Of a stretch of 64,000 bases of DNA, positions 6,614 through 41,506 are shown piece after piece; positions within the stretch are counted from its first letter, which is position 1; the number at the start of each line of letters is the position of its first letter. The notes beneath the pieces are model-generated. The model was not told where the DNA came from, made no database searches, and saw nothing but the letters and a program-made list of their open reading frames with translations. The stretch is from Candidatus Bathyarchaeota archaeon (lineage in GTDB: Archaea; Thermoproteota; Bathyarchaeia; Bathyarchaeales; Bathycorpusculaceae). The DNA lies in contig CAWHXY010000007.1 of the NCBI GenBank assembly GCA_963833575.1, positions 128,001-192,000 of the forward strand, given 5' to 3'. A program made the position numbers and the translations under genes.

Positions 6614-6870
6614 TAGTATCAATCTTCTCTTGGATAAAATAAGAATATGAATGTTATGAACTCAAAATATGCAATAACGGTATCTAATTACTTCACATTC
6701 TAACGCAAATGAGATTCTATTACGATAAATAATTGCTAACGCTTTTAGCGCTTATCCAAAGATAGGTTGTTCTTGAAAGCTCTTTTTCTTATAAAGTATA
6801 TTATAGAACTGATCAACAGTCATACTTTCTTGCTTGGTTTGCTGACATGTTTAACAAGAACAGAGTTCTT

Positions 6871-8871: not shown

Positions 8872-9963
8872 AAATTGAAAAGCTTATAACTAGAAATTGG
8901 GTCTCGTATCATTTGAGAACCAATCAGACAAGGAAGTGATCCCTGCGAGACAGGATGAACACGAGACCCTTGAAACCCTTTTCAAAAACGTAGACTTAAG
9001 CTTTGCTAACAACCTCATAAAACAGTGCTATCATGCTAGCGGCCCTGGAAGGCCACCCAGAAATCCAACAGGCATTTTTAGAGCATTTCTAGTAATGCGA
9101 ATGAAAGCCATACGCAGCCTAAGAGAAATGACACGCATTCTAAACACCGATTTAAGAATCAGAAAGCTCTGCCTAATCAAAGACAACCAAAAAGGCTACA
9201 CGCGAAGCGTAATGAGCCGATTTTCCAAACGCGTAGGCCAAGACAACCTCAACAGAATAATCGATCAAAAAGTAATCAAACTTCTAAAAGGTCAACAAAG
9301 CAATGAAGTTGACGTGGTTTTGGATGCTTCTTTCATTAAAGCTTGGAGCATTCGTCATCCAACAGATAATCAAACTGGCTATTCGGATGCTGATGCAAGA
9401 GTTGGCAGATCCGGACGATCATTTTCGTTAGGCTATAAAATGCATCTGTCGATTGACCACAAAACTATGCTTCCTCTTTCAAGCGTCTTTGCTTCTGCAA
9501 ACCCAAAACGAGAAGAAACATTCCTTGACTTTACTTGAAAAAGCCAAGCGAGTTCTTCAGCGGTGCAAAGCCAAGGTTAGAAGTGTAGTTGCGGATAGTC
9601 AATATAGCGATTCTAAGCTTAGGTGTGCTGTGGAGAAGGCAACTATTCCTTATCCTGCGAATCACATGAAGGGTGTTGTGGGTCTTTTGAGGGTTGATAG
9701 GAAGTTTAGGACTTATGGGTCTGATGAGGACAAGATAGAGTATCATAAGAGACCGCCGATTGAGGCGGTGAACAGTTTTCTTAAGACTCAGTTTAGCTTA
9801 GCTAACAACAAAGTCAGAGGACTAGCGCAAGTGACATTCTATGCATTGTGCAGCATTCTTTGTCTTGTACTAAACAGAGAGGCAGCTGAGAGGATTGGCA
9901 GATCTGAAAAGGCAGTCTCACCAACTTACTTCAACACTTAATTTAGGGACAAAGCGGCGCGCT
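8853..9963 (+). mobile_element. IS5/IS1182-like insertion sequence, copy 1; transposase frameshifted (+1 near 9503)
   Basis: TIRs agcgcgctggcttgtccctaaatt / aatttagggacaaagcggcgcgct. ORFs 8897-9538 and 9453-9941 carry GRPP, LDASFI, GYKMH, ADSQY, RPPIEAVNS (DDE) motifs. Confidence 0.88.
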
Positions 9964-15084: not shown

Positions 15085-17274
15085 ATGGATTCAGCAAACT
15101 TTCAAGAAAATGGATCACCTAAAATTCCAACAAGAATCGGCAGATTATATGAGCTTGCCAACAACTTGTGGTGGAGTTGGCACGAAGAAGGTCGTCAAGT
15201 TTTTCGTTCCTTAGATTATGCTCTTTGGAGAACCAGTGGGCATAATCCGGTTAAGCAACTGAGGAGTATTAGCATAGAGAAGCTGGAAGGGGCGGCAAGA
15301 GATCCTGTTTTTTTGGAACTGTATGATATGGTGATGTCTTCTTTTGATAAGGAAATGACGAAGGGTCACGATTGGTGTGGTGAAACAAACCCTGGTAAAC
15401 CAAATGGAAAAATAGCTTATTTCTCAGCTGAGTACGCAATCCATAATTCTTTGCCAATATACGCAGGCGGCTTAGGCGTATTGGCAGGAGATATTTGTAA
15501 AGAATCCTCGGATCGGGGGTTACCTTTCGTTGCAGTTGGGTTCATGTATCCTCAAGGCTACTTCCGACAACGAATTTCTCCAGATGGAGATCAACAAGAA
15601 GATTACATTCAACTGAACTTTGACGAGGCTCCTATTTCGCCCTGCGCTTGGCCCCAAGCGTGTGGTCCGGTTATACCGATTCAGCTTGCAGATCACCTCC
15701 TTTACGTGAAGGTCTGGGAGGTTCATGTTGGTTGTGTCAACCTTTATCTGATGGACACCAATGTTGAAGAAAATCGCCTTGAGGATAGAACATTATCGGC
15801 TCGCCTGTATACTGCGGATCAGGAAGAACGTCTCCGACAACTAATCGTTCTTGGCGTAGGTGGAGTACGAGCGCTAAGAGAGCTTCACATTGAACCAACA
15901 GTATGGCATGCCAATGAAGACCACACCGCTTTCATGATGCTCGAACGCCTCCGAATAGAAAGAGCTAATGAAGCGTCTTTTGAAGATGCAGTCGAGAAAA
16001 TACGCCGAAATACAATTTTCACTACCCACACACCAGTTCCGGCAGGACATCATGTTTTTAGTGTTCAATTAATGGATCGGTATGCTCGTAGTTTTTGGGA
16101 GCCTCTTGGAGTTGACAGAGAAACTTTCCTAAAGTTAGGACAATACCCAGGCCTTGCTCCTGAAAGATTCAACCTTACAGCTTTTGCGTTTCGTTTAGCC
16201 GGGCAATCAAACGCTGTGTCTAAGCTTCATGGGAAAATAACTAGACGAATGTGGCAAGTCCTTTGGCCAAATAAGTCAGAGGATAAGGTGCCGATTTTAT
16301 CCATAACAAATGGTGTTCACCTGCCCAGTTGGCAAGCACCAGAAATCAATGCGCTCTGCCAAAAATACCTTGGTTCAGAGTGGCAGCAAAAACAAGATGA
16401 AGATGGCTATTGGAAAGGTTTCGATGACATACCTGACGAAGAAATATGGCAGATGCGTCAGACATTGAAAACACGATTGATCAATACTTTGCAAGATAGA
16501 GCGCAGCAGCGATGGACCCAAAATAATGTGACCACACAACAAGTGATTGCGATGGGTTCACTTTTAGATCCCTACGCATTAACTCTTGCTTTTGCCCGCC
16601 GTTTCGCCGAGTACAAACGACCCTACTTGCTTCTATCCGACATCGACCGGTTAAAACGTATCATTACAAATCCAGAGAGGCCAGTGCAGATTATCTTTGC
16701 AGGTAAATCTCATCCCGCAGATTATCAATCAAAGCAATTACTAAAACGAGTGTATCAAACAGCTTTAGACAGAGGGTTTCAAGGACGTATTGCCTTCGTT
16801 GAAGACTATGACCTCAACCTATCACGGGAACTTGTTCGAGGCGTTGATGTCTGGCTTAACAACCCCAGACGTTTACAAGAAGCATGTGGAACTAGCGGAA
16901 TGAAAGCTTCTATGAACGGCGTAGTAAACCTTAGCATTCGCGATGGATGGTGGGACGAAGCATACAACGGCAAAAATGGGTGGGCAATAGATGATTTTCA
17001 CGGAGGTACATCAGAGGTAGAAGACAAAGCGGACGCAGAATCACTCTATAGCCTGCTAGAAAAAGAAATCGTACCTCTCTACTATAGCCGAGATCGAAAA
17101 GGAGTACCGCATGATTGGATAAAATATGTCAAAGAAGCAGTGAAAACAATCACTCCCGCTTTCAACGGTTGCCGAATGATGAAAGAATACACTCAAGAAA
17201 TGTATTTGCCTGCCTCCAGACAGGAGGAAATAAAAGTTGTTTTAGATGAAGGGGAAGAAATTGGTGAAACATGA
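15085..17274 (+). CDS. glgP: alpha-glucan (glycogen/maltodextrin) phosphorylase
   Basis: NLWWSW, YAGGLGVLAGD, FTTHTPVPAGH, ITNGVH, FARRFAEYKR, EACGTSGMK (PLP lysine). Confidence 0.95.
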   Translation: MDSANFQENGSPKIPTRIGRLYELANNLWWSWHEEGRQVFRSLDYALWRTSGHNPVKQLRSISIEKLEGAARDPVFLELYDMVMSSFDKEMTKGHDWCGETNPGKPNGKIAYFSAEYAIHNSLPIYAGGLGVLAGDICKESSDRGLPFVAVGFMYPQGYFRQRISPDGDQQEDYIQLNFDEAPISPCAWPQACGPVIPIQLADHLLYVKVWEVHVGCVNLYLMDTNVEENRLEDRTLSARLYTADQEERLRQLIVLGVGGVRALRELHIEPTVWHANEDHTAFMMLERLRIERANEASFEDAVEKIRRNTIFTTHTPVPAGHHVFSVQLMDRYARSFWEPLGVDRETFLKLGQYPGLAPERFNLTAFAFRLAGQSNAVSKLHGKITRRMWQVLWPNKSEDKVPILSITNGVHLPSWQAPEINALCQKYLGSEWQQKQDEDGYWKGFDDIPDEEIWQMRQTLKTRLINTLQDRAQQRWTQNNVTTQQVIAMGSLLDPYALTLAFARRFAEYKRPYLLLSDIDRLKRIITNPERPVQIIFAGKSHPADYQSKQLLKRVYQTALDRGFQGRIAFVEDYDLNLSRELVRGVDVWLNNPRRLQEACGTSGMKASMNGVVNLSIRDGWWDEAYNGKNGWAIDDFHGGTSEVEDKADAESLYSLLEKEIVPLYYSRDRKGVPHDWIKYVKEAVKTITPAFNGCRMMKEYTQEMYLPASRQEEIKVVLDEGEEIGET

Positions 17275-19168: not shown

Positions 19169-20968
19169 GTGTCTGATATGAAGAGAGACCTTATCAAATC
19201 CTTCGCGTTAATTTTGGTTTTAGCATCCTTAACTTGGATGGTTACCTTTCAAGTAGCAAAAGGATCGAGCACTTTAGTGGTTCCAGACGATTACCCAACC
19301 ATAAACGCAGCCATAACCCACGCCTCCGCAGGCGACATCGTGCTCGTGAAAACCGGTATCTACAACGAAAATATCCAAATCACCAAGCCCTTGACGCTGC
19401 AAGGTCAAGGCAACGCCGTTATAGTTGGCGTTGGCGGCTCAACCCCAACAGCGGTTTTAAAATTGAACGCGAACAACATTGTAGTTTCAGGCTTAACCAT
19501 TGAAAGCCAAACTTACACAAACACCACATACTACGCCTACGGTATCTGGGTTGACGGCGACAACTGCACCATAACAGGCAATACCATCAGCCACACTTAC
19601 CTTGGCATCTTCTCCTCAACCCAAAAATCCACAACTATCACACAAAACACAATAACAGGAAGCATAAAGGATGGTATTCGATTCTGTGCAGGTTCATTAA
19701 CTAACATCTCCGATAACAACATCATCTCAAACGGGGTGTCAGGCCTTGCTTTAGGCGGTTACTCGGACACGGTTAAGGGCAACAACCTTCAAGAAAACTT
19801 CCGAGGATTAGGCCTAGGCGGATCAAACTCGGTAGTCTTCAACAACTCCTTGGTTTCTAATACGGAGTCAGGAATCTTCCTCTCAGGGTCACAAAACATA
19901 ATCGCCGCCAACGACATTTCCGCAAACAAATACGGTATCTACATAACTACCCAAGGAGCTTCACCTCATGCAAACGAAATTTACCACAACAACTTTGACA
20001 ACAATTTCTACAATGCGTTCGGCAACTCTACTTACCTTGTTGAAATATGGGATAACGGTGCTCAATCAGGCGGAAACTATTGGAGCGACAAACAACCAAC
20101 CGTCGTCCACATGGTTAACATAAACAACACAGACAACTATCCCCTATCAGCACCGTTCATCCTTTCCACTCCCGACAACTTACCAACCGCAATTGCTCCA
20201 GACTCCGCAAAGCCCAACAGCATCGTTGCCTCATATTCCTTTGACAGTGTCGGCTTAGACCTCGTAACTCCCGACGCTACAGGCAATAATCCCGCAGTTT
20301 TAGGATCAGTCACGGGTGTTTACAATTACACCCCTGGTCAGGTTTCAGGAAAGTTTGGGAATGCGTTAAGCTTCAACGGGAACACTTATGCTTCGGTGCA
20401 GCCTTCACTCAGCCTCGATAACCAAAACGAGGTAACGGTGGATGTTTGGGTAAAGGTGACAGAAATCAAGGGTGTACCCTACAACAACATACTAATCGAA
20501 GCCATCCGAACCACCGGCAGCCTGCCAACAAGAACCCTTGGACTCGCCATCAACGGAGAAGAACCCATTAACGACAGCTCTCCGCCACAAGGAGCCCTCC
20601 GCGCCTACGTATTAACGCCAAGCGGCTTCAACGAAATCGACACTAAAACGCCGCTCCCAAACAACTGGGTTCATGTAGTCTTCACCCGCAGCACAACTAC
20701 AGGGATGCACATCTACGTTGACGGCAAAGAACAAACATACACCGTTGCCGCTGGAACCGCCAACCCCGCAGGTCCAATACAGAACCCAACCGACATCTAC
20801 ATCGGACACGACTCAATTACTGAAATCGACCAACTCCAAATCAGCAACACCGTCGTTCAGCAAACCCAGCCACTGTGGATGCAACCGTGGCTTTGGGTAA
20901 TTCTTCTCGTTGCGTTTGGCGCCAGTCTTATCAGTTTATTTCTCATTGCAAAAAAACGCAGCCGATAA
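19169..20968 (+). CDS. surface protein: NosD-like parallel beta-helix plus LamG-like domain, C-terminal TM anchor
   Basis: Signal peptide, VPDDYPTINAAI, N-rich PbH1 repeats, GGNYWSD; GKFGNALSFNG, WVHVVFT, IYVDG. Confidence 0.85.
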   Translation: MSDMKRDLIKSFALILVLASLTWMVTFQVAKGSSTLVVPDDYPTINAAITHASAGDIVLVKTGIYNENIQITKPLTLQGQGNAVIVGVGGSTPTAVLKLNANNIVVSGLTIESQTYTNTTYYAYGIWVDGDNCTITGNTISHTYLGIFSSTQKSTTITQNTITGSIKDGIRFCAGSLTNISDNNIISNGVSGLALGGYSDTVKGNNLQENFRGLGLGGSNSVVFNNSLVSNTESGIFLSGSQNIIAANDISANKYGIYITTQGASPHANEIYHNNFDNNFYNAFGNSTYLVEIWDNGAQSGGNYWSDKQPTVVHMVNINNTDNYPLSAPFILSTPDNLPTAIAPDSAKPNSIVASYSFDSVGLDLVTPDATGNNPAVLGSVTGVYNYTPGQVSGKFGNALSFNGNTYASVQPSLSLDNQNEVTVDVWVKVTEIKGVPYNNILIEAIRTTGSLPTRTLGLAINGEEPINDSSPPQGALRAYVLTPSGFNEIDTKTPLPNNWVHVVFTRSTTTGMHIYVDGKEQTYTVAAGTANPAGPIQNPTDIYIGHDSITEIDQLQISNTVVQQTQPLWMQPWLWVILLVAFGASLISLFLIAKKRSR

Positions 20969-21002
20969 CCAAATCTCCAATGGGAGGAAAAAAATAGTTT
21001 TT

Positions 21003-21045
21003 TGGTGGGCCGGACCGGGCTTACCCCCGAAACGGTCTGAGTCCC
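21003..21045. repeat. att site: displaced tRNA-Val 3' fragment (with CCA) plus element end motif
   Basis: tggtgggccggaccgg followed by gcttacccccgaaacggtctgagtccc. Confidence 0.85.
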
Positions 21046-21582
21046 TTCGATAGATTAACGGAATTAGATTATTTTTCGTAAGTTTTGACATAAGTTTGAA
21101 GCTGCCCGTTCCCAAACCAAAAGGGTTCAAAACCTTTCTAGCCCGAAGACATATTGTAACTTCAGAAGTGGTGTTGAGAGGGAGATCACAGCATCAATTT
21201 ACTGGTAACTCTGAATCTTTAGTTCTAATTTCTAATTCTAAGATATATGTAATTGCGTAGTTGCTTAAAAGTATTATTTCTTATTTTATTAACAACCTGT
21301 CTTGAATTTATTTCCACATTTAGTACAAGTGAAAACAGCTAAGCAGAACGTAGAGTTCTCTAATTGTCTATCGGGAAAAGCAACAGTATTTCTGCATTTT
21401 GGGCATTCAACCATTCAAGAGGCACTTTTGAAGTTAACTTGCATTTACATGAAGAAACGGGTATAAGAAGCGATGTTGTCACAAGCTGGAACATCGATTT
21501 CTTACTCATGCAATTTTTTAAAAGTGCTTAGAATAGTGTTATAAGTAGTGTACGCACTCATAGGGAACTTAGTGGTAACCTG

Positions 21583-21795
21583 TTGGATAGGAAAGAAGCT
21601 GTTGCCTTAGTTAAGGAATTAGGCGATAGAGAACTGATTAGACCGATTTTTGTTATTCTACATGGGATCGAACCTTATAGGTACAAGGTGCAAATCAAAG
21701 GCGAATATGACTTCAAAGAAATGGAAATATTTCTTAAAGGTAGAGGATATTCTTTTGAAGAGAACAATGATTGCTTAATTATTTTCAAACAATAA
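21583..21795 (+). CDS. small hypothetical protein
   Basis: 70-aa TTG-start ORF with globular composition. Confidence 0.55.
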   Translation: MDRKEAVALVKELGDRELIRPIFVILHGIEPYRYKVQIKGEYDFKEMEIFLKGRGYSFEENNDCLIIFKQ

Positions 21796-22303
21796 TAAAC
21801 AAACAAGGTTGTATCAAATGGAACATAATGTTCTAAATGATACATCCAATAACGAGTTTTAAAATCCATGCTCTATACGTCACTCCTTCGCTCAGAGGTG
21901 CTGAAACCTCTTCGCTTAGTCGCTACATAAGTAAATTAATGATATAAACGACTAAAAGTAAGTAGGAATTGGCTTTTGTTTGTTCGTTTATCCGTTTGCC
22001 TAATTTGAGAAAAGAAGCTTAATTTCCAGTATTGGTACAGAGTTATCAATAAGCAAGAACCAATAGTTCTGATTTCTAAGTTCATAAGTATGGATCAGTC
22101 CATCATTTACTCGGGAAGGATGCAGTAAGAAGCAAGAAAAATATACATAGATCATTCTCAGAATTATCAAAAATCAATGCCTTCTAATGTGCGTTTAAAA
22201 TAGGCATCACGTAATAATAAAAAATTTTCTTTCACTCTCTCCTTTGTTATCCTTCGAGTTTTCCAGCCATTACCAGATTTTTTACAAAAAAATTTTGTAG
22301 CTA

Positions 22304-22954
22304 TTACACTTTTTCGAGGAAATCTGCTCTTGTCACCAGTCCGATTTTATCTCTTGCTTCAATAATCAGCACAGCATAATGAAAAAGAAGGGCTTGTGCA
22401 ATCTCGGCAATTGGAGTATCTGATGGAAATTCAGGAGCTTCATCAGTGATCTTCGCTTCTTTGATTGGCATTTCTTTTAGTTCCTGCAACCAATTATCTT
22501 TGGCTTTTGTCTCGGGATTCTTTTCATCTTTATTCAATTTTAACGGAGATAGCATTCTGTTCATTATTGTAAATTCGGTGATGATGTCCCATCTCCCAGT
22601 TTTTTTGTCATATACTGGAAGTTGACTGAAACCACCTTTCTTCATTTTGTCGATAGCCAGAGAGACAGGATCGTTAGAATCCACAAAGGCAACATCCACA
22701 GATTTGACATATATTTCAGCAACAGTTTTTTTAGGTAATGACGCAACACGTTCGAGAATTAATGAAGATAACTTTGATACATCTTCGATGCTGATTGGTC
22801 TTTTTCCCCTTAACTTTTTAGAGATGTTAGATTGGTCATCGTCAAGTTCTTTTTCTAATTGTCTTTGAGAAATATTAGCTTCATTGAGACCATCTCTGAG
22901 AAGTTTTAGGAGAGTTTCTTTTGGGGGAATTTGGATATATTTAGTTTCAGACAT
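22304..22954 (-). CDS. XRE-type HTH plus CBS-pair transcriptional regulator
   Basis: ANISQRQLEKELDDDQSNISKKLRG HTH; MKKGGFSQLPV and IGLVTRADFL CBS motifs. Likely start MSETK. Confidence 0.8.
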   Translation of the reverse strand: MSETKYIQIPPKETLLKLLRDGLNEANISQRQLEKELDDDQSNISKKLRGKRPISIEDVSKLSSLILERVASLPKKTVAEIYVKSVDVAFVDSNDPVSLAIDKMKKGGFSQLPVYDKKTGRWDIITEFTIMNRMLSPLKLNKDEKNPETKAKDNWLQELKEMPIKEAKITDEAPEFPSDTPIAEIAQALLFHYAVLIIEARDKIGLVTRADFLEKV

Positions 22955-23022
22955 TCCGCACACCATGAGGTCATTAATGACCTGATATAGGCAGATCAAG
23001 TACTTTAGCATATACACTCTCG

Positions 23023-24078
23023 ATGATAAAAATGACAAAAATGGAAAACCTCAAAGAAAAATCTCAAATAATTGATACATGGAAAGTAAAAGTTTCGCAT
23101 GGAAAATGGGAACTTCCGAAGAAACTTAAGTTCTATGGGCGATGGACCAAAAGTTTTGACGGAGACTGGCGTTTTGAGGCAATTGAAAAAAACATTAAAG
23201 ATAAGATACCTGTTGTTGGGAACGAGAACAAGTATCATAAGCTTTTAACTGGAACATGGAAGAAGGTAAATTCGTATAGTGAGCTAAGGAAATGGTCAGC
23301 TAAAAACAAAAAACCATTCAAGTATTCTTTGAAAAGAAAGCTCGCAATCCACAGAGAAGGTATTAGCGATCTTAATCAGAAATGGCAAGAAGTCATAGAC
23401 CTTAGATTAGACCTTAATTGCTCTGGAAAAACAGCATGTCCTTCTTGCGGTAATACTAACAATGTTTTATTAGAAGAAGGGAGAAGTAAGAAAATCATTG
23501 CATATACATACCAATGTTTGCCATGTCCTCACTGTAAATACCACTGTCACTTATGCCATAAAGAAGTTTATACTATCCATGATTCAGGCACTTTCCCAGA
23601 GGAATATTACACCTTTGAATATGAGGGAATGCCTTTTGAAGAAAGTAAGGGTTCGCTGAAACAGACAAAAAAATATTGGGAAGGAGTTTTCAATAGAAAG
23701 TACCAAAGATTGAGAAAATATTTCAAGAAGGAACATCTCCCCTTCACTACTACTACAAATCTCAAGAGTAATGAAAAAGTGATAAGTGATTGTAAAAAGA
23801 GAATCAAGCTTTGGCTTAATGAACATCCCGAGCTTAAGGAAAAGTTTTACGATAAAAAGACTAATGTTGTGAGAAGAGGAACAGACCACTGTCAAGTATG
23901 TGGAAACCTAATAAGAGTTTCTAAACACGCATGGAATAAGCGATACTGCTCTGAAGAATGTGGATTGATTGCCCAACACAACAAGTTTGTTGAACAGAGA
24001 AGAAATGATGTGGCATTATTAGAATGCTCTAAAGAAATAGATAAAATGCTCAGTAGGAGAAAGCCTAGGGAAGATTGA
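23023..24078 (+). CDS. basic multi-zinc-finger protein of unknown function
   Basis: CPSC, CLPCPHCKYHCHLC, CQVC...YCSEEC (TRASH-like). Confidence 0.7.
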   Translation: MIKMTKMENLKEKSQIIDTWKVKVSHGKWELPKKLKFYGRWTKSFDGDWRFEAIEKNIKDKIPVVGNENKYHKLLTGTWKKVNSYSELRKWSAKNKKPFKYSLKRKLAIHREGISDLNQKWQEVIDLRLDLNCSGKTACPSCGNTNNVLLEEGRSKKIIAYTYQCLPCPHCKYHCHLCHKEVYTIHDSGTFPEEYYTFEYEGMPFEESKGSLKQTKKYWEGVFNRKYQRLRKYFKKEHLPFTTTTNLKSNEKVISDCKKRIKLWLNEHPELKEKFYDKKTNVVRRGTDHCQVCGNLIRVSKHAWNKRYCSEECGLIAQHNKFVEQRRNDVALLECSKEIDKMLSRRKPRED

Positions 24079-24117
24079 ACGCTCCACACACTATAGTTTA
24101 CTGATAAGTGGTATAGT

Positions 24118-24246
24118 ATGAATTCTAAAAACGTAAAACCAATAGTAGTACACATATCTACTAAGGAGCTTATGGATAAAGCTAAATTAGTAGAATGTGA
24201 AACGTACGATAGTATAATTTTAAGAGCTTTAAAGAAACTCAAATAG
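24118..24246 (+). CDS. small ribbon-helix-helix-like DNA-binding protein (42 aa, not in ORF track)
   Basis: MNSKNVKPIVVHISTKELMDKAKLVECETYDSIILRALKKLK; ETYD..I.R pattern. Confidence 0.65.
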   Translation: MNSKNVKPIVVHISTKELMDKAKLVECETYDSIILRALKKLK

Positions 24247-24277
24247 AGCCAATAAACTTAGATAAAAGTGGCATTTT

Positions 24278-25138
24278 ATGAAAGATTCTATCTTTGAGTC
24301 AGAGTATTCTATCAAAGAAGCAATTAAGGCTTTCAAAGAGAGGGGGTTAGAAGCACTATCTACAAGTGAGAAAGGGGTTCTATTGTCATTAATGAAGTCA
24401 GAAAGAGATTACGTTATAGATAACCATATTTCAAGTAGACAGTTCGATCCAGACCCTGTAAATGAGAAGTATGAAGGTAAAGGTTACAAAGGGTATAGAA
24501 CTTTTCTAACTCTTACTCAGAATGAAGAAAATATGGAATTAATTATAGAAGAATGTGCTAGAATTCCTAATCGTGGCTTAATAGCTCTCGATCAAGTACC
24601 TAAAGTTAAGATCAATGAAGAGTATAGAAATCTCTTTCCAGAGTTAGCAGAAAGCTTGGAGAGAGAAGGACAATTAACTAAAGCTCTAAGATGTCCTAAT
24701 GGCTACTTAGTGGACGGAGAAAAGCGTAAGCTGTTATTAGGAGATCAATTAGAGACTATAGAAGTACCTATTGGAACAGAATGTTCTAACATGGTAGTTC
24801 TCACTCAAGAACAGAAAAGAGCGTGTGTACTGGATCTCTATAATGTAGTGTCAAATGAGACTACATTCAAAGAAGAAATTATTAATTTACTAATGAAAAG
24901 ATACGGTCTAAGCAGATCTACAGTCTACAGAATTATAGATCCTTCAATTCAAGAAGAGAAAAAGCAGAAGCAAGTAGCTAAACTGAAAGAACATCAAGAA
25001 CGAATATTTAGACTCAAAAACGATCTTAAAGGTCTGGAAAGTAGCTATCAAGAAGTAAGAACTAACCAAAGCAGAGAGAATGTCAGTACCCTGCTAATGT
25101 ATGTAGAAATGACTATTGGGCATATTAGGAGTCTTTAG
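24278..25138 (+). CDS. ParB/Srx-like domain plus HTH protein
   Basis: ELAESLEREGQL...NGYLVDGEKR (DGxxR) and RYGLSRSTVYRII HTH. Confidence 0.6.
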   Translation: MKDSIFESEYSIKEAIKAFKERGLEALSTSEKGVLLSLMKSERDYVIDNHISSRQFDPDPVNEKYEGKGYKGYRTFLTLTQNEENMELIIEECARIPNRGLIALDQVPKVKINEEYRNLFPELAESLEREGQLTKALRCPNGYLVDGEKRKLLLGDQLETIEVPIGTECSNMVVLTQEQKRACVLDLYNVVSNETTFKEEIINLLMKRYGLSRSTVYRIIDPSIQEEKKQKQVAKLKEHQERIFRLKNDLKGLESSYQEVRTNQSRENVSTLLMYVEMTIGHIRSL

Positions 25139-25228
25139 GAGAGAGAAAGTTTTTATGATTTTACTTACGGCGTGTGTTATACCCTTACTATTACTTTATT
25201 TAGTGATTAAGGACTAATTTGAGGAGAT

Positions 25229-25651
25229 TTGGTTTTGGCAAATAAAGATGAGAGTATACACGATAAGTCTTGGGCTGTAGAAATAGGAAAGGCGAGAGTA
25301 CAAAAATTAGGCAATCAGTATAGAGAATTAGGTTATTTTGTAATCGAGAATGGCGAAAATCACGCTGGAGTAGACCTAATTATTATCAGCACTCCAGAAG
25401 GTAGAATAAAGAAAGTTATCGAAGTCACTAATTACCGAAAACCTACATTCTTTATGAGTAGTGAAAGGTTTGAACGGTACATTAACAGCTTAACCTATTT
25501 TGAACGTATAGAGGGTATTGAGCTTGAATTAGTTGTTTCTTTCATCGATAACTTGACAACAAATCAAGTTCTAGAGCTTAAGAAGAACCACATCACCATC
25601 CGAGTGGAAGGTTCTCAAGATTTACCTGAAAAAAGGGCAATGATAAATTAG
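25229..25651 (+). CDS. PD-(D/E)XK-fold protein, Hjc/resolvase-like
   Basis: YRELGYFVIE...GVDLII...IEVTN; the catalytic K position appears to be T. Confidence 0.55.
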   Translation: MVLANKDESIHDKSWAVEIGKARVQKLGNQYRELGYFVIENGENHAGVDLIIISTPEGRIKKVIEVTNYRKPTFFMSSERFERYINSLTYFERIEGIELELVVSFIDNLTTNQVLELKKNHITIRVEGSQDLPEKRAMIN

Positions 25652-25680
25652 AATCTCAGAAAAAAGAAGGTTAAGAAATA

Positions 25681-25887
25681 ATGCGTAAACAACTAATGAA
25701 CCATAGTATAGTTAGTTATTATTCCAGAACGAGAGTTAGATTACGAGCTTTCGAAAGTGTGCAAATTCTAAGATCAATAGGTCTTAGTTACTCTGAAATA
25801 CAAGAAGCAATTAAGCAATTCTACGGTCTAAAACTTAGTCAATCTACAATAAGCGAGTGGCTAAACAAGAAGCACACTCCCCAATGA
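25681..25887 (+). CDS. small HTH protein
   Basis: GLSYSEIQEAIKQFYGLKLSQSTISEWL. Confidence 0.7.
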   Translation: MRKQLMNHSIVSYYSRTRVRLRAFESVQILRSIGLSYSEIQEAIKQFYGLKLSQSTISEWLNKKHTPQ

Positions 25888-26030
25888 ACAATCAAAAGGG
25901 TTCAATTATTTTGTGTAAAAGTATCAAAGAAGTTGAAAAAATGAATGGCAAATACTCTATCAAAAAACACTGTCCAAAACAGACAGTGAAAGAAATCGAA
26001 TTAAGATTTGCTTTTACTGGTGGTGATTAA
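25884..26030 (+). CDS. small hypothetical protein (48 aa, not in ORF track)
   Basis: ATGA overlap with the previous stop; ends 1 nt before the next ATG. Confidence 0.45.
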   Translation: MNNQKGSIILCKSIKEVEKMNGKYSIKKHCPKQTVKEIELRFAFTGGD

Positions 26031-26031
26031 G

Positions 26032-26769
26032 ATGTCTGATTATGAAAAATTGGTTAATGAAGCAATTGCAGAGAGAAAAGCTGACACTGAAGCTGAAGCT
26101 GAAAGGTTAGCAGCTAAAAGAATTCGGGATAAAGAAGAGAGCGATAGAATCAACAAGGTAAACGCTGACGCTGAAAAGCTAATGGTAGAGCAGAGAAACA
26201 TACAGTACAGAAACAATTTAGTCTTTGGTTTAGATGAGGAACAGATCAAAGATCTCGATGAGCTAATCAACTGTACTAAACAACTTTCACAAGGTAACGC
26301 TCAGTACGATCCACAAGAAAGGATTAAGACTCATCTAAAAGCTAAGATAGACATATTAAAGCAGCGTATCACAGAGAAGGGTAGAAACTTAGGCGAGATC
26401 ACTTTCATTAAAAAGACTTATTATGAAAGCAGTAAGGGCGATTACTTCCTGTTTTCAGATTCTAACGGTAAATATGGTCTATATGCTGGGGCGTTAGGAA
26501 GTTTTAGAACTACTAATCTATATCTACAGACAGACGCTAATGGTCAACCATTAAAGACAGTTGAACAGGGCATCATTGAAGGAATTCCACCGATACCGAT
26601 CAATAACTATCAGACAATCGTAGTAAAAGACAAGAAAGATCTACCAATAGCCACTATTCCAAGAAAACCTCTTTTTCCTAAAGACTATGAAATACCAGAG
26701 GAATCGATACCTAAAGGGGCAACACGATTCGGAGACAGAAAGAACGCTTTTGGGAGAAATAAGGCATGA
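26032..26769 (+). CDS. hypothetical protein with N-terminal coiled coil
   Basis: Start MSDYEK after ggtggtga RBS; charged helical N-terminus, beta-rich C-terminus. Confidence 0.7.
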   Translation: MSDYEKLVNEAIAERKADTEAEAERLAAKRIRDKEESDRINKVNADAEKLMVEQRNIQYRNNLVFGLDEEQIKDLDELINCTKQLSQGNAQYDPQERIKTHLKAKIDILKQRITEKGRNLGEITFIKKTYYESSKGDYFLFSDSNGKYGLYAGALGSFRTTNLYLQTDANGQPLKTVEQGIIEGIPPIPINNYQTIVVKDKKDLPIATIPRKPLFPKDYEIPEESIPKGATRFGDRKNAFGRNKA

Positions 26770-26927
26770 GATCTCGAGATGAGATCTTAGCTGATCTCTA
26801 TTTCAAAAAGCAGTTTCAAGGCACGTTAGCCGATAAAGCAATAATCGAGCTACTCTTAGACATTAGAAATCAAAACGAGTCTAATAACGGAAAGAAGAAA
26901 GCTGTTGTAGTTAGTGGTTTTAAATAA
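26766..26927 (+). CDS. small hypothetical protein (53 aa, not in ORF track)
   Basis: MRSRDEILADLYFKKQ...IIELLLDIRNQ; ATGA-coupled to the upstream gene. Confidence 0.5.
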   Translation: MRSRDEILADLYFKKQFQGTLADKAIIELLLDIRNQNESNNGKKKAVVVSGFK

Positions 26928-26967
26928 GCTTGGTTTGAGTTACGTTTTAAGTTACAGCGAGAAGGCT

Positions 26968-27177
26968 TTATCGCTTGATTCTTCTTCTCGCTCCACTGCT
27001 CGTATTAAGAGTCTTGTTGTGTTCACTTAAAACAAACCTTAACGCACCATTTCTAAAATATTCTCTATATCGATTTCCACAGTTTGAGCATTTAAACATC
27101 TTAACATTAAATGATCCGAAACGCCATTCTTTCGAAGGATTACCTAATTCTATGTTGCATTTGGGGCACTTGGGCAT
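26968..27177 (-). CDS. Cren7-like zinc-ribbon protein
   Basis: CPKC..PSKEW..VKMFKCSNCGNRYRE resembles the Cren7 P.K.W...G.F.....GK.FR pattern. Confidence 0.55.
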   Translation of the reverse strand: MPKCPKCNIELGNPSKEWRFGSFNVKMFKCSNCGNRYREYFRNGALRFVLSEHNKTLNTSSGARRRIKR

Positions 27178-27300
27178 TTTTTTTCCCTCGGTATATAATT
27201 TGCGTTTACCATTTATATAATTTAACTGGCAACGTAGCTTTCCAATTTTGAGATAAGCTTTTTAACATAACTGATTGATACGCTTGATTCAGGTAAGAGT

Positions 27301-29742
27301 TTGATGAGTAAGAAAACTGAGGATTCACCGATTGTTCAAATAAACTTCGCTATTCCACCACAGACACATACTTCCATGTATCTTATGCACAAATATTGGG
27401 CAAGAAAACCGCATAATGTGGTAAGAGAATACATTGAACATTATAGTTCAGAGGGAGATGTGGTTCTTGACCCCTTTAGTGGTAGCGGTGTGACAGCGAT
27501 AGAAGCTTTGAAAGCAAAAAGGAAAGCAATCGCCACTGACCTTGACCCTACATCAACATTTATCACTAAAATGACAATTAGCAACGTAAACTTGGAGGAA
27601 TTTCAGAAAAGCTTTGACAGTTTAAAAAAGAATCTAAAAATCAAGATTGATCCTCTCTATGAAACAATTTGCCCAAAATGTGGCGTACACGTTTTCGCTC
27701 AAGCAGCAATATGGAACGAAACTGAGCTTAAGGCGATAAGACTATCATGTAAATGTTCAAAAAAGACACTTTGGAAAAAACCTTCAAGATACGATTTTCA
27801 AAAATTGAAAGAAATTGAAAACACCAAAATTTCACATTGGTATCCAAAGAACCGATTAGTTTGGAATACCCGAATAAATGTTAACAAAGGAGAGGTCGTA
27901 TCAGACCTTTTTACTAAAAGAAATCTCATCTCTCTTTCTCTAATTTTTGACAAAATAAACTCAATCAAAGATCCAAAGATCAAAGAGTTAATGCGTTTTA
28001 CTTTTACCTCTACACTTGGTCAGGCAAGCAAAATGGTATTTGTGATAAGAACAAGAGGAAGAGCAAAAGGTGAACAAGTTAAATCCAGTCCAGAGGTTGG
28101 AAGTTGGGCAACCAGAGGATATTGGGTTCCCCCAGAATACTTTGAGATCAACGTTTGGAATTGTTTTGAAGAAAGATTTAACAAAGTTCTGAGAGGAAAA
28201 ACTGAATCCAATAATGAACTACCAAATCCTTCAGAAGCAGTTGATTTTGAAGATTTGAAAAAGAATAAAGACTACTTGATTAAAAACTTGGATGTAATTG
28301 AGTTATCTTCTCTCATTCCAGATGAAAGCGTTGATTATGTTTTTACAGATCCCCCTTATGGTGATAGCGTACCATATCTTGAACTGGATTATCTTTGGTC
28401 ATCTTGGCTCGGTTTTAATCCTGATTTTGGTAGTGAAATCATTATTAGTGATAGCCCTGACAGAAAGGAAAAGAACTTTGATATGTACGGTAAAATGCTT
28501 TCAACAGCCTTCAGAGAAATTTATCGAGTGCTTAAGAAAGGAAAATATCTAACTGTAACTTTCCACAACACCGACATTCAAATTTATAATTTAATAATTA
28601 GCACAGTGGTATTGGCAGGTTTTGATCTTGAAAAAATCATTTATCAACCACCAGCAAGAACATCGCCTAAAGGTTTACTCGCACCTTATGGAAGTGCTGT
28701 TGGTGACTATTACATTAGGTATAGAAAACCTGAGGTAGAAAGGGGAGTAATCAACAATCAAGAAATTGACCAAGAAAGGTATGAGCGAATAGTAGTAGAT
28801 TCTATTAAACACATTATCGCTAAAAGAGGAGAACCAACTCCATACTCCATAATTGTCAACAATTATTCTGTGATTTATGAACGACTAAAAGATAACGGTT
28901 TGCTCTTTACAGCCCCACAAACTGTTGAACAAATATTAAAAAAAGAACTCAATAAGGAGTTTATTTTAAAAGACAACAAATGGTGGTTTAAAGATCCCTC
29001 AGTCGTTCCATATATTGAGCAAGTTCCACTTAATGAAAGATTAGAAATCGTAGCCTTAAATGTCTTAAACCAAAAAATCAAAGTTACGTTTGATGATGTT
29101 CTCAGAGAAGTCTTTACATTATTTACTAATGCACTAACACCCGACATACAAGGTGTAAGAGAAGTTTTATCAGAACTTGCTGTTCAAACAAAAGATGGAA
29201 AATGGATGCTAAAACCGAGTATAAAACAAAGACTAAGTGAGCATGACACTATTGTTGAAACAATCGCCAAAATTGGAGAACTTGCTGGGTTTACCGTTTA
29301 TGCTGACATCCCAAACTACAGAGTGAAGTTAAGTCTTCCGTCTATTCCTCAACAGAATTTAGACCGTATCCAAGAAATTGATGTCTTATGGATTAAAGAT
29401 GGGAAAATTGCTTACGAGTTTGAAGTTGAAAACTCTACTGGAATAACGGAAGCAATAGTTAGAGGCTCAAACATTCCATACACTACCGTAAAAAGGTACA
29501 TCGTCATTCCAGAGGAAAGACAAGCATTCTTTTATCAAAAAATCTCCGAACCGCTGATTAAAGATAAAATAGAAAAATTATGGGGTTTTGTTTTCTACGA
29601 TAGCATTGTTACCTTTTACGAGCAACACAAAAAGAAAACAAAAGTTGAAGCATCAGACTTCGACAAAGTTTGCAGTGTTCTTAAGTTAAAAACAATTAAG
29701 CAAGAGACAATTCAAGGTTTTGAAGAAAAGAAAGAGAAGTAA
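27301..29742 (+). CDS. amino-DNA methyltransferase (Zn-ribbon type) fused to C-terminal PD-(D/E)XK endonuclease domain
   Basis: HKYWARKP, LDPFSGSG (motif I), CPKC..CKC, FTDPPY (motif IV), C-terminal IDVLW...FEVENST. Confidence 0.85.
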   Translation: MMSKKTEDSPIVQINFAIPPQTHTSMYLMHKYWARKPHNVVREYIEHYSSEGDVVLDPFSGSGVTAIEALKAKRKAIATDLDPTSTFITKMTISNVNLEEFQKSFDSLKKNLKIKIDPLYETICPKCGVHVFAQAAIWNETELKAIRLSCKCSKKTLWKKPSRYDFQKLKEIENTKISHWYPKNRLVWNTRINVNKGEVVSDLFTKRNLISLSLIFDKINSIKDPKIKELMRFTFTSTLGQASKMVFVIRTRGRAKGEQVKSSPEVGSWATRGYWVPPEYFEINVWNCFEERFNKVLRGKTESNNELPNPSEAVDFEDLKKNKDYLIKNLDVIELSSLIPDESVDYVFTDPPYGDSVPYLELDYLWSSWLGFNPDFGSEIIISDSPDRKEKNFDMYGKMLSTAFREIYRVLKKGKYLTVTFHNTDIQIYNLIISTVVLAGFDLEKIIYQPPARTSPKGLLAPYGSAVGDYYIRYRKPEVERGVINNQEIDQERYERIVVDSIKHIIAKRGEPTPYSIIVNNYSVIYERLKDNGLLFTAPQTVEQILKKELNKEFILKDNKWWFKDPSVVPYIEQVPLNERLEIVALNVLNQKIKVTFDDVLREVFTLFTNALTPDIQGVREVLSELAVQTKDGKWMLKPSIKQRLSEHDTIVETIAKIGELAGFTVYADIPNYRVKLSLPSIPQQNLDRIQEIDVLWIKDGKIAYEFEVENSTGITEAIVRGSNIPYTTVKRYIVIPEERQAFFYQKISEPLIKDKIEKLWGFVFYDSIVTFYEQHKKKTKVEASDFDKVCSVLKLKTIKQETIQGFEEKKEK

Positions 29743-29798
29743 CCAAAACAGATGAAATACGTATGAAAACCTAACAAGGACATTACTCTCCAAAGTAT

Positions 29799-29903
29799 CT
29801 ACTTATTGTTTTTTCTCTTGGGTTCTGTGAGGATCAGATAGAGTATGCCTACAAAGATTAGAACCATGAAGATAAGAGCAATAGTGAATAAGCCATTATC
29901 CAT
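29799..29903 (-). CDS. 34-aa single-TM peptide coupled to the integrase stop
   Basis: MDNGLFTIALIFMVLIFVGILYLILTEPKRKNNK; TAATG overlap with the integrase. Confidence 0.5.
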   Translation of the reverse strand: MDNGLFTIALIFMVLIFVGILYLILTEPKRKNNK

Positions 29904-31015
29904 TAAGACTCCTTCTTCTCATATTTTTGTTTTGCCAATACTTCATGTGTCAGTTGTTCTATAGGTGTCCGTTTTATTTCATCAATTCCCTTTGCTATGT
30001 CTGGGGTAGAAACTTCAGTAATATTGTATTCTTGCTGTAATTGCTTAATTGCTGCTCTGATACTGTCTTGTGGTATTGTTTTCTCTATAACCTTTTGAAG
30101 AAGTTCAATTCTTGTTTTTAATATACTGTTCTCTTTTTCAAGGCTCGATACTACTTCTTCGAGTTTAGAAACTTTACCGTTACCATTTTTAGGTTCTAAA
30201 GGCATTGAATCAATTACTCTTTGCCACGAGTTTTTCAAGTCGTTTCTATCTAGCATATAGGTAAGTAGTGAACTATCAACAGACTTGAATGAGAGAATCT
30301 TAACTATTGGTTCACTAAGACCTAAGTTTATTGCTGCTGAAATCCATATTTTACGGAATAGATGTTGATTGATTCTTTTGTTAAATCCAGCAACAGTACA
30401 AGCATTTACCATCATTTTATCAATCCCTCTTGCGGTTGTTGGAAGTTGAATATTAGCTGTTTTCAACTGTCTAAATAACGCTTGAGTTTCTGGAGTAATG
30501 TAGACTTTACCAACTACGTTTTCTTTTTGGCTTAATACTAAAAACTCACCACTCTCTATTTGATCTGAAGTTATTTTCAATAAGTCGCTCATTCTCGCTG
30601 GGCAATCACGACTAAGACTAACCCATGCTTTAACAGCAACATCATTGAATTTGTAGATCTTCTGTATATCTTCAAGTGTAGGTCTCCAACTCTCAATTTT
30701 AATTCCGATCTTAGGCAATTTGTGTTTTAATTTTAAAGGCTGTCCAATATAAGTAAAGAAACTCTGTATTGAAACAACTCTCATACGAGCAGAGTTTTGA
30801 CTTAATTTCTTCTCGGATTGAAGCCATTGAAAAAACTGTAGTACTCGCAATTCAGGTTTAGGTAAATCCTTTAGTTCTTCAGTCTTACTAAGTTCAAGAA
30901 ACTCAAGGAAATATTTAATTGCTGAATGGTATTGGGTTCTTGTTGATTCACCTAATATTTGGCTTAACCATTCTTCTTCTAATCCCATATTCTCATTCAT
31001 TCTTTCGCTCTCCAT
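29903..31015 (-). CDS. tyrosine recombinase/integrase
   Basis: N-terminal core-binding domain (STRTQYHSAIKYF), ARMSDLL (R), SQKE (K), HLFRK (HxxR), LTY (Y), C-terminal coiled coil. Confidence 0.85.
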   Translation of the reverse strand: MESERMNENMGLEEEWLSQILGESTRTQYHSAIKYFLEFLELSKTEELKDLPKPELRVLQFFQWLQSEKKLSQNSARMRVVSIQSFFTYIGQPLKLKHKLPKIGIKIESWRPTLEDIQKIYKFNDVAVKAWVSLSRDCPARMSDLLKITSDQIESGEFLVLSQKENVVGKVYITPETQALFRQLKTANIQLPTTARGIDKMMVNACTVAGFNKRINQHLFRKIWISAAINLGLSEPIVKILSFKSVDSSLLTYMLDRNDLKNSWQRVIDSMPLEPKNGNGKVSKLEEVVSSLEKENSILKTRIELLQKVIEKTIPQDSIRAAIKQLQQEYNITEVSTPDIAKGIDEIKRTPIEQLTHEVLAKQKYEKKES

Positions 31016-31114
31016 TTAGGTTTTATGGATTAGAGATCAGAACTGTTGGTTCTTGCTTACTGGTAAAAAGCACACTGTATTATTTATTGAAAGGACACGT
31101 TGTCCCTAAGTGCG

Positions 31115-40255: not shown

Positions 40256-41506
40256 ATGGCAACTGACGAAGTGCTCAGTTTACTAGTTGATTTCATAAAT
40301 AAAAATTCGAACGTAGCTGACATACAATGGGACCGACGCATGAGTCCACGGTTGCTTTTTAATCCGTACTCAGAAAAATATGAAGAGCGCAAAACGATTG
40401 CCCACTACTTTCTATTGGCTGCATCAATACTTGACGATACAGTCGTAGGTTACCCTGAAAATGCTCGCATGCTTCTTGGTTATCTTCATGAAGCCTTCGG
40501 AACGAGCCTTTTCGAAATAAAAAAAGGGCATATATTCGAAGAAGAAATCGTAAAATGCGATTTTTATCATGACTTGGGGCCAAACAAGAAAGCAGCATCA
40601 GAAATTTTAGCTTCAGTTAACTTATTTGTTAAGAATAATGCTGAAAGAAACTTGCTAAAATACGCCCAAAAATTCAGCAAGCCAAAAATTTTCGTTGATG
40701 ATATTTCGCAAAATATCAAAGCATTGGGTGGACCGCATGTTGATAAAGCATGGATTTATCTACGTTGGATGGTTCGGCCTCAACCTGACCTGCAAATCTA
40801 TGATCATCTGTTACCGGAAGACCTTTATGTTCCCTTAACAAAGGAAAATGCAAACGTCGCCGCCAGCTTAAGTTTAATACCTTCAGCTTCGCCGTCTTTG
40901 TGGCGAGATGAAAAAACAGCTGCTGATGGCAGGCAAAAAATAACTGATTTTGCAAAACGACTCTTTCCCTTAGACCCCGCAAAGGTTGACTATCCATTTT
41001 TCCTCTTAGGCAGATGGCTTAAACAAAAAACACTCAACCGCTACACATTGAAAACAGCGCTGGATTTTCTTGATCGCATGCAGACAATAACTGGTCAATC
41101 CCAAGCTTATTACCAAAAAATGAGCCGCTACAAAAGTGGATGGGAGAAAAAAACTGCTCTTACCCTTTTAAAAATGCATATTCCATACGGCTATGAAACT
41201 ATAAGCTTCCCATTACCTAACAATGAGGTTTATACCCCTGATTTCATTTTGGAAAAAAAACTCAATGGAAGAAAAATTGTACTTGAACCTCATTTTGAAA
41301 TGACTAAAACACAGGCTCGCAAATACGCGTTGTTCAAACGAACTTATGGTCACGAATTCATTCTGATACTTTTACTTAAAAACGATCTAATTCCGCTGTA
41401 TCATCAAAGAAAAATATTAACTGATGATGTTTGCGATGATGTTTGGCCAATTGAGTTTATTCATTTGTTAGCTGAAAAAATTAGAAGAGGAACCTACGGC
41501 GAGTAG
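40256..41506 (+). CDS. DUF2400 (HhH-like) domain fused to C-terminal PD-(D/E)XK endonuclease domain
   Basis: YLRWMVR..PDL....LYVPL and FPLDPAKVDY (DUF2400-like); YKSGWE...YE...YTPDFIL...VLEPH. Confidence 0.7.
   Translation: MATDEVLSLLVDFINKNSNVADIQWDRRMSPRLLFNPYSEKYEERKTIAHYFLLAASILDDTVVGYPENARMLLGYLHEAFGTSLFEIKKGHIFEEEIVKCDFYHDLGPNKKAASEILASVNLFVKNNAERNLLKYAQKFSKPKIFVDDISQNIKALGGPHVDKAWIYLRWMVRPQPDLQIYDHLLPEDLYVPLTKENANVAASLSLIPSASPSLWRDEKTAADGRQKITDFAKRLFPLDPAKVDYPFFLLGRWLKQKTLNRYTLKTALDFLDRMQTITGQSQAYYQKMSRYKSGWEKKTALTLLKMHIPYGYETISFPLPNNEVYTPDFILEKKLNGRKIVLEPHFEMTKTQARKYALFKRTYGHEFILILLLKNDLIPLYHQRKILTDDVCDDVWPIEFIHLLAEKIRRGTYGE

Follow-up and report, generated by a model that had tools for sequence, protein, structure and literature searches.

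The window analysed here, a 64,000-nucleotide stretch from the genome of a Bathyarchaeia archaeon, holds an intact tyrosine integrase gene enclosed by two inverted copies of a 37-nt sequence, and it raises the question of whether such a pair marks the ends of a mobile element. An earlier reading of the letters alone (the sequence-only reading) had taken it so, with a 9-kb element bounded by the copies at 22043-22079 (the left arm) and 31030-31066 (the right arm). We find that the ends very likely lie elsewhere, at two direct copies of a 10-bp core, and that a recombinase enclosed by a striking inverted pair is no guarantee that the pair marks the ends of an element. Judging from its proteins the host is a Bathyarchaeia archaeon; homologues of a flanking protein (40256-41506) at 86-88% identity are named Bathyarchaeia, and so are two homologues of the integrase.

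The inverted pair itself is real and beyond chance. The left arm and the reverse complement of the right arm are identical at 33 of 37 positions, and the four mismatches, read by eye from both arms, are T/C, A/G, T/C and T/C, that is transitions only. A repeat search of 15000-40000 gave this as the longest inverted pair (37 nt, 89% complementary, 8,950 nt apart), and with one indel allowed the similarity extends to about 46 nt, through '..CATAA', ending on the left-arm side at about 22088. The AGAAC-N5-GTTCT dyad is perfect in both arms. A 23-nt site pattern with up to 3 mismatches is found at two places in the window, the two arms, as compared to 0.00 expected (100 shuffles), and at the same two places only in the whole genome (2,750,337 bases in 8 contigs). 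The pair had thus been described correctly in the sequence-only reading, as 37 bp long with 33/37 identity, transitions only and an internal dyad. A relaxed 23-nt pattern, with the 5-nt spacer left free, was also scanned for in other genomes, one genome per species. It gave 19 single matches in scattered taxa, where about 17 are expected by chance according to a hand estimate, and none of the 19 has an integrase relative beside it (tblastn best E 2.2). The suspicion that the 37-mer could be a widespread ordinary promoter was not confirmed, as no copy was found in another genome at the stringency used.

The evidence for the ends comes from a public freshwater sediment metagenome run, X1, which is kept as contigs and was compared with the window over 20500-34500. 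X1 contains 21% of the sampled words of the element. One of its contigs, 240 nt long, follows 21033-21198 with 0 differences and then resumes at 31057, so that 9,858 bases are skipped. Ten letters at the joint fit either side, and 74 letters lie on the shorter side; as 166 + 74 = 240 the whole contig is accounted for, with nothing between the two parts. The ten letters are the decamer TTACTGGTAA, which is read on the plus strand at both 21199-21208, the left end of the element (attL), and 31057-31066, its right end (attR), where it is at the same time the outer 10 bases of the right arm. A 10-bp repeat is by itself without significance and counts here only since the joint falls on it. Contigs of this kind are built from 31-letter words, and a 10-base repeat should then be unable to create the join artificially. 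The skipped block is also the block of low G+C, 0.34-0.36 at about 21.0-31.0 kb as compared to 0.39-0.49 outside, and it has the integrase at its right end.

The joint, together with the decamer at both flanks, implies an element of 9,858 bp whose ends are 10-bp direct repeats, as is usual for integrative elements. We consider it very probable that 21199-31056, with the second core copy at 31057-31066, is an integrative element of the Bathyarchaeia archaeon and that the left arm is internal to it. A form in which the flanks are joined exactly across one decamer exists, as an empty or an excised site; this site with a single core copy is seen in one low-depth X1 contig. The inverted pair can therefore not be upheld as the boundary of the element, since the left end lies 844 bp to the left of the left arm. 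Other parts of the sequence-only reading gained from the same joint: there is a mobile element with an intact tyrosine recombinase, which the analysis of the integrase given below also bears out, and the right-hand site is a recombination site, as the joint of the empty or excised form falls inside it.

The layout of the sites can be read from both ends. The core decamer is palindromic apart from its two central bases. On the integrase side of attR it is followed by an arm (31030..31056, minus strand) made up of the AGAAC-N5-GTTCT dyad and the bases after it, and the right arm of the inverted pair is thus the core plus 27 adjoining bases on the integrase side. On the element side of attL there is a degenerate copy of the arm block (21209..21235, plus strand), of which 21213-21235 agrees with 22057-22079 of the left arm at 19 of 23 positions; it is direct relative to the left arm and inverted relative to 31030-31056. 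In a modelled circle the core stands between the two inverted arm blocks and forms with them an imperfect palindrome of about 64 bp. A near-palindromic core between inverted arms would be the layout expected of a simple tyrosine recombinase site.

The element is probably a cryptic plasmid- or provirus-like replicon which enters and leaves the chromosome via its own tyrosine integrase. Strand exchange by the integrase would take place inside the near-palindromic decamer; one partner would be an intergenic site of the chromosome and the other the site carried by the element, and in the circle this latter site would be the core with one arm block on each side, each block consisting of the GAAC-N5-GTTC dyad and about 12 further bases. 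By binding to the arm that lies towards its gene, the integrase would in addition dampen expression from its own promoter. The right-arm site does sit directly upstream of the integrase, between the core and the start, and this position, together with the conserved block upstream of homologous integrases described below, is consistent with autoregulation.

The integrase gene (29903..31015, minus strand) is a 370-aa open frame whose true start is likely to be M6, at 31000; the product on record has 365 aa, with this start, and most homologues begin near there. The frame is open and aligns end to end with its homologues, so the gene is intact while the element is integrated. Pfam recognised the N-terminal SAM-like domain only, and the NCBIfam model XerA_Arch matched over its positions 13-260 of 263 with E 9e-12, which is below the cut-off of the model. 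In an alignment of 23 integrase sequences R141, K164, H218, R221 and Y253 are invariant. The sixth classic position is not H/W, F243 and V246 being invariant there and K244 nearly so, and five of the six classic positions are thus accounted for. An AlphaFold2 model (pLDDT 83.6) was compared with known structures in Foldseek, where XerA (5hxy) was the best match (E 5e-8, probability 1.00), and integron integrase, lambda Int, XerH, Cre and Tn1549 Int also matched, all with probability 1.00. In total 22 PDB chains matched at E<=0.001; the TM-scores are low, 0.3-0.46, with the domains posed differently, and the identity to the nearest, XerA-type matches is 12-16%. By its predicted structure the integrase is a two-domain Xer/Cre-like recombinase with a XerA-like fold and without a separate arm-binding domain. 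The model also carries an extra helical C-terminal tail of about 90 residues.

Sixty homologues of the integrase were found at E<=1e-5, several of them named integrase or XerD by their sources. All of the 25 aligned loci, 24 from metagenomes and the window itself, keep a block upstream of the integrase gene consisting of a GAAC-N5-GTTC dyad, TGATTTC, TTCATAAA and a GGAGG before the start, and the conservation begins at the core position. Thirteen pairwise blastn alignments of family loci begin at a distance of 75-83 nt before the conserved Met; the outer edge of the core in the window lies, by subtraction, at -78. The integrase-side arm of attR is part of this conserved block. A second copy of the locus's own 37-nt block, with up to 9 mismatches and on either strand, was found in none of the 19 other family loci searched, several of which are short and some near-duplicates, and the same test recovered the window's own pair at 4 mismatches. 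The idea that the 37-mer accompanies homologous integrases at other loci thus holds for a single upstream block (25/25), but not for an inverted pair (0/19).

Some members of the family are found outside chromosomes. The locus L089 is a complete circular contig of 9,132 nt with an exact terminal overlap of 127 nt, that is a circle of 9,005 bp; it carries a family integrase and no second inverted copy of its block. Another contig, L088, is a permuted and partly duplicated variant of it, and the 160-280 nt directly before the integrase are where the two are least alike. Free 9-kb circles that lack a second inverted site thus occur in the family. When the element was compared with 38 family loci (tblastx and tblastn), the matches besides the integrase were limited to a 140-aa protein (p140), a 69-aa ORF and the overlapping plus-strand ORF 26975-27220, which implies that the elements of the family share almost no genes apart from the integrase. 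A relative of the integrase was not found in the IMG/VR viral collection. In 22 family loci there is one tRNA only, 1.7 kb away, and the family does therefore not generally sit at tRNA genes.

Attachment sites in the integrase family may not all be at the same place. In G148 (locus L043) a 19-nt exact direct repeat (8955-8973 and 16456-16474), which grows to about 45 nt when imperfect matches are counted, encloses 7.5 kb, and the family integrase lies some 315 nt away from its right copy; L077 has a 37-nt direct repeat (89%) at 327-363 and 3124-3159, on the upstream side of its integrase. The ends of contigs might likewise reflect assembly forks near a recombination site: of the 29 metagenome loci in which the start of the integrase is included, 14 break off 64-210 nt before the conserved Met. 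This was not counted as evidence, since most of these ends lie about 100 nt beyond the core position.

Several observations weigh against the boundaries and the mode of movement proposed here. The joint of the empty site is one short contig, of depth 2.4, from one run, and X1 may be from the same sample as the genome assembly and hence not independent of it. No X1 contig spans attL, attR or a circular junction; integration and excision by the integrase were not seen, we infer them. In the loci L064, L065, L067, L069, L075, L080, L086 and L091 the similarity upstream of the integrase reaches about -300 and takes in a small divergent ORF, and in this subgroup the crossover site may be placed differently from that of the window element. 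The integrase and this ORF are also adjacent in G131, within a contig of 43.8 kb. Two further loci, L073 and L074, carry an inverted pair of their own, unrelated in sequence to that of the window, again with 33/37 identity and transitions only, which extends to about 49 nt. In L073 the arms are at 52-100 and 6701-6750; one of them is 107-143 nt upstream of the integrase, and the other, 6.6 kb away, is between two GNAT acetyltransferase genes. L073 begins exactly where L074 continues with other sequence. In view of this second case, inverted pairs near integrases may have a use. Finally, no replication, capsid or transfer gene was recognised in the element that would point to a particular kind of replicon.

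If the right arm belongs to the crossover site, the left arm needs an explanation of its own. It lies on the plus strand (22043..22079). Its first ten bases (22043-22052, TTATCAATAA) are core-like and differ from TTACTGGTAA at 2 of 10 positions, and the dyad lies in the arm block that makes up the rest (22053-22079). We take it most probably for a third, inverted and diverged copy of the core and arm, a pseudo-att inside the element, left behind by an earlier duplication or by recombination between this element and a relative of it. We read it as a diverged relic because all the differences are transitions and relatives do not conserve the copy. It would at most be an accessory binding site, not an end of the element, and it is probably not an active crossover site. 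Compared with the modelled circular junction the left arm scores 76, and with attR 65, a difference that is too small to tell which form was copied. A short ORF after the left arm (MDQS..) was tried as the stump of a second integrase gene, since some family integrases start with MDQ; its agreement with a typical start in the family is limited to about 11 of 18 bases, and the idea was not relied on. Core-like motifs also occur near the left arm in short direct repeats, 22038-56 and 22159-77 (16/19) and 22048-59 and 22127-38 (11/12). These repeats within 22038-22177 may be a chance product of AT-rich DNA.

The best surviving alternative leaves the boundaries as they are and gives the left arm work to do as a binding site of the integrase or of another protein of the element, either in the assembly of a recombination complex at attL, in titration of the integrase, or in driving or repressing a rightward transcript antisense into the 3' end of the gene for a regulator with HTH and CBS domains. 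An identity of 33/37 has been kept and the dyad is perfect in both arms, and a third, weaker copy adjoins attL. The copied block is conserved upstream of the integrase in 25/25 loci, which suggests a sequence of protein-binding or promoter type, and L073 and L074 likewise have an inverted pair near the integrase. A second copy is nevertheless present in 0/19 related loci, the complete circle L089 included, and the four differences, all transitions, are what neutral drift would give. Downstream of the left arm, on its strand, there is no gene before the convergent HTH-CBS gene, and the predicted fold of the integrase has no separate domain for arm binding, only the Xer/Cre-like two-domain body and the C-terminal helical tail. 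A working accessory site is on balance rather unlikely, and we keep the diverged relic as the preferred explanation of the left arm.

The joined form could also have arisen without the integrase, by a chance deletion at 10-bp microhomologies or in a strain that was never occupied and has the decamer by coincidence. It was seen in a single contig, and neither attP nor a circular junction of the element was seen in X1, where both ends are uncovered. The joint falls, however, in the integrase-adjacent block conserved in the family, at the very edge where the similarity within the family begins, and the bases missing from the joined form are precisely the low-G+C block with the integrase. The decamer is also near-palindromic with inverted arm blocks around it, as in the core site of a recombinase, and a strain that was never occupied would define the same boundaries and target site anyway. 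An origin of the joined form without the integrase is in our view highly unlikely.

There is about as little chance that the integrase, in the free circle, uses the true att together with the inverted pseudo-site 844 bp away and flips one part of the circle in the manner of FLP and the 2-micron plasmid, and we regard this as very improbable. If true, the flipping would serve copy-number amplification or expression switching, it would be the first FLP/FRT-like system on an archaeal replicon, and the pair of L073 and L074 would be a second instance.

Least probable of all is that the two arms delimit the mobile or invertible unit, 9 kb in length, as the sequence-only reading had supposed when it proposed a tyrosine-recombinase transposon or a large invertible cassette. 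The pair is real, is unique in the genome and encloses a recombinase, and the X1 joint shows its right arm to be the crossover region. X1 is a small run that has no cover to speak of at both arms, attL and attR and is uninformative there, and contigs drop rare variants, so this cover is too thin to exclude rare inverted forms; within it, almost nil as it is, no joint between opposite strands was reported at either arm. Nothing was found that points to a Tn916-like transposon or to an invertible cassette: the observed joint removes 21199-31056 and not 22043-31066, the low-G+C block starts near 21.0 kb and not 22.0 kb, a 10-bp direct repeat stands at the ends, the arms disagree at 2 of 10 positions of their core-like decamers where tyrosine recombinases require crossover regions that match, and none of the 19 related loci has the second copy. 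The integrative element with ends at 21199 and 31066 is accordingly the reading that we follow below.

The target of the element is an intergenic site inside an older island and not a tRNA gene. A tRNA-Val(GAC) gene lies at 39982..40057 on the minus strand, and a variable island begins at its 3' end. Two congeners (G012 and G001) conserve a NosD-like gene (19169-20968) and the genes beyond tRNA-Val; between these flanks they have 13 kb and 6 kb, without any gene shared with the 19 kb of the window, and the three genomes cease to agree immediately beyond the 3' end of the tRNA gene. A 13-nt copy of this 3' end is found on the plus strand at 21007-21019, where it is direct relative to the tRNA. 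The copy and the comparison with the congeners together delimit 21.0-40.0 kb as a tRNA-Val island, which bears out the earlier view that the element is nested in a tRNA island. The comparison with an empty site, as the sequence-only reading had suggested it, succeeded with the X1 contig but not with genomes of sister species. The two congeners keep the NosD-like gene and tRNA-Val and share no island genes, and when 61 genomes of the genus were searched with 31067-34109 only an HTH_10 gene and a short multi-copy stretch were matched. No relative was thus close enough in these searches for a sister species to show the target site.

A 39-nt direct repeat (36/39) is found on the plus strand at 21014..21052, where it overlaps the 13-nt copy of the tRNA-Val 3' end at the far edge of the older island, and at 34110..34148, from a repeat search. 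It occurs at these two places only in the genome, and the copies flank 13.1 kb. A 12-nt motif within the repeat recurs in inverted orientation just downstream of tRNA-Val; 21007-21019 and 39961-39973 also belong to this set of sequences. In X1 the core of the repeat also occurs with different flanks, the loose ends being at 21048, 34112 and 34142. The repeat has the appearance of an attachment site left by an older element at tRNA-Val, since decayed, and no integrase of the island serves it now; the only integrase in the island is that at 29903-31015. Next to the left end, a further X1 contig, of depth 2.1 and with 40 letters on the shorter side of its joint, links 21009 with 21198 in opposite strand orientation. 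One of the breakpoints is the exact left edge of the 10-bp core, the 10 bases ending at 21009 match the core at 6 of 10 positions, and the joint may have come about by inversion, at the target site, of 189 bp of flanking DNA.

Outside the element the island carries several other genes. An Amidohydro_2 gene, split into two minus-strand ORFs at 31115-31828 (C-terminal part) and 31850-32194 (N-terminal part), is probably a broken gene, and its 3' end is 48 nt from the right end of the element. There are also Rieske, SnoaL and HTH_10 genes, and at 34248-39407 an arsenic-type cluster with PadR, an ArsA ATPase (E 4e-78), thioredoxin, DUF7669, two low-molecular-weight (LMW) phosphatases that are ArsC-like, and ferredoxin. 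Downstream of HTH_10, a stretch of about 110 nt (about 33853-33966) has matches of 73-87% identity in many genomes of the genus, often several per genome, and recurs at three other places in the window's own genome. Its in-frame translation resembles the C-terminal portion of a small helix-turn-helix protein.

The genes of the element itself give few clues as to its nature. In the 834-bp stretch between attL and the left arm the ORF list has a 70-aa ORF (21583..21795, plus strand) of no assigned function, for which no match was found in Pfam or NCBIfam, nor by tblastn in the family loci. After the left arm comes the HTH_3 and CBS regulator (22304..23038, minus strand; Pfam CBS E 1.6e-9, HTH_3 E 1.1e-4); its listed TTG start overlaps the next gene and the true start is probably further in. 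The next gene encodes a cysteine-rich protein of 351 aa (23023..24078, plus strand) that was assigned to no family: Pfam, PHROGs, NCBIfam, PADLOC and PDB (phmmer 0) gave no match, and the best Atlas score, 0.85, was uninformative. A 286-aa protein (24278..25138, plus strand) has weak HTH matches only (E 0.003-0.009), below curated cut-offs.

The protein p140 (25229..25651, plus strand) is one of just three non-integrase ORFs of the element with a relative in the family loci searched, and in L064 the identity is 40% over 96 aa (tblastn E 1.3e-8). It is followed by four tightly packed small ORFs of 68, 57, 253 and 53 aa (25681..26927, plus strand), with no family above threshold, and by the zinc-ribbon-like 69-aa ORF (26968..27177, minus strand), which has tblastn matches in L075 (46%, E 2e-13) and L095 (42%, E 9e-9). 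This ORF, rather than the plus-strand ORF 26975-27220 that overlaps it, is probably the real gene. Last before the integrase is a Type II DNA methyltransferase of 813 aa (27301..29742, plus strand; PADLOC MTase_II E 1e-64 over residues 29-445, Pfam N6_N4_Mtase E 4e-20). Its residues 560-813 (254 aa) resemble the C-terminal domain of NmeDI with an Atlas language-model score of 0.88, which is a lead, and this C-terminal domain may be restriction-enzyme-like. The gene content of the sequence-only reading thus stands as regards the intact recombinase, the HTH-CBS regulator and the methyltransferase, while the endonuclease part of the latter has the status of a language-model lead. Families of capsid, packaging, Rep and conjugation or mobilisation proteins had no match among the ORFs of the element in Pfam, PHROGs, NCBIfam and PADLOC, in agreement with the earlier statement that no capsid, packaging ATPase, Rep or conjugation gene could be recognised.

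Small mobile elements of Bathyarchaeia have hardly been described. What is gained here is an element with base-exact ends, its 10-bp core and target site, an integrase family of at least 60 members and a circular 9-kb relative, and together they offer a practical basis for developing a site-specific integration tool in a lineage whose genetics has barely begun. Narrow phrase searching of the literature, with supplementary files outside its scope, found nothing on plasmids or integrated elements of Bathyarchaeia. A paper on Bathyarchaeia viruses reports, in the part available to us, head-tailed and filamentous viruses and one spindle-shaped virus (PMC10848311); a small integrative element of the present kind is not described in that part, and the supplements may list some.

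How does the element compare with known systems? According to the scheme of a review of archaeal tyrosine recombinases, as far as its accessible text goes, it is a type II element, that is pNOB8-type and of the lambda paradigm (PMC8371274). It has in common with these elements the integrase gene that is intact when integrated, the direct repeats of a short core and the link to a tRNA island, and its intergenic target is, in the same text, a documented option for archaeal integrative elements (PMC8371274). The review distinguishes 17 families, with the signature YxxR in the pNOB8-type and KxxR in the SSV1-type (PMC8371274), whereas the integrase of the window has the canonical R..K..HxxR..Y. 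It also differs in being nearest to XerA, by sequence as well as by predicted fold, and in the target, which is intergenic in an older island and not a tRNA gene. Elements of the Tn916/Tn1549 type likewise have a tyrosine integrase (fold match to the Tn1549 integrase at E 5e-4) and imperfect inverted sequences near their ends, but the ends of the window element share an identical 10-bp direct repeat, its left inverted arm is internal, 844 bp from the end, and no conjugation genes were found in it (Pfam, PHROGs, NCBIfam).

The yeast 2-micron FLP/FRT system and invertible segments such as shufflons and the fim switch, whose features are general knowledge, resemble the element in having a tyrosine recombinase gene with one of two inverted sites adjacent to it, on a small replicon. 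They differ in that the sites of the window do not agree at 2 of 10 positions of the core, and that its relatives are without the second site. With the simple recombinases of the XerA, Cre and FLP type the window integrase shares the two-domain body without a separate arm-binding domain, and a site that is an imperfect palindrome around a short core. The reaction, on the other hand, would be integration and excision of a replicon and not dimer resolution, the C-terminal tail has about 90 residues, and the arms are about 27 nt each with an internal dyad, while those of lox, FRT and dif are shorter. The element thus belongs to a known type, to which it adds base-exact ends.

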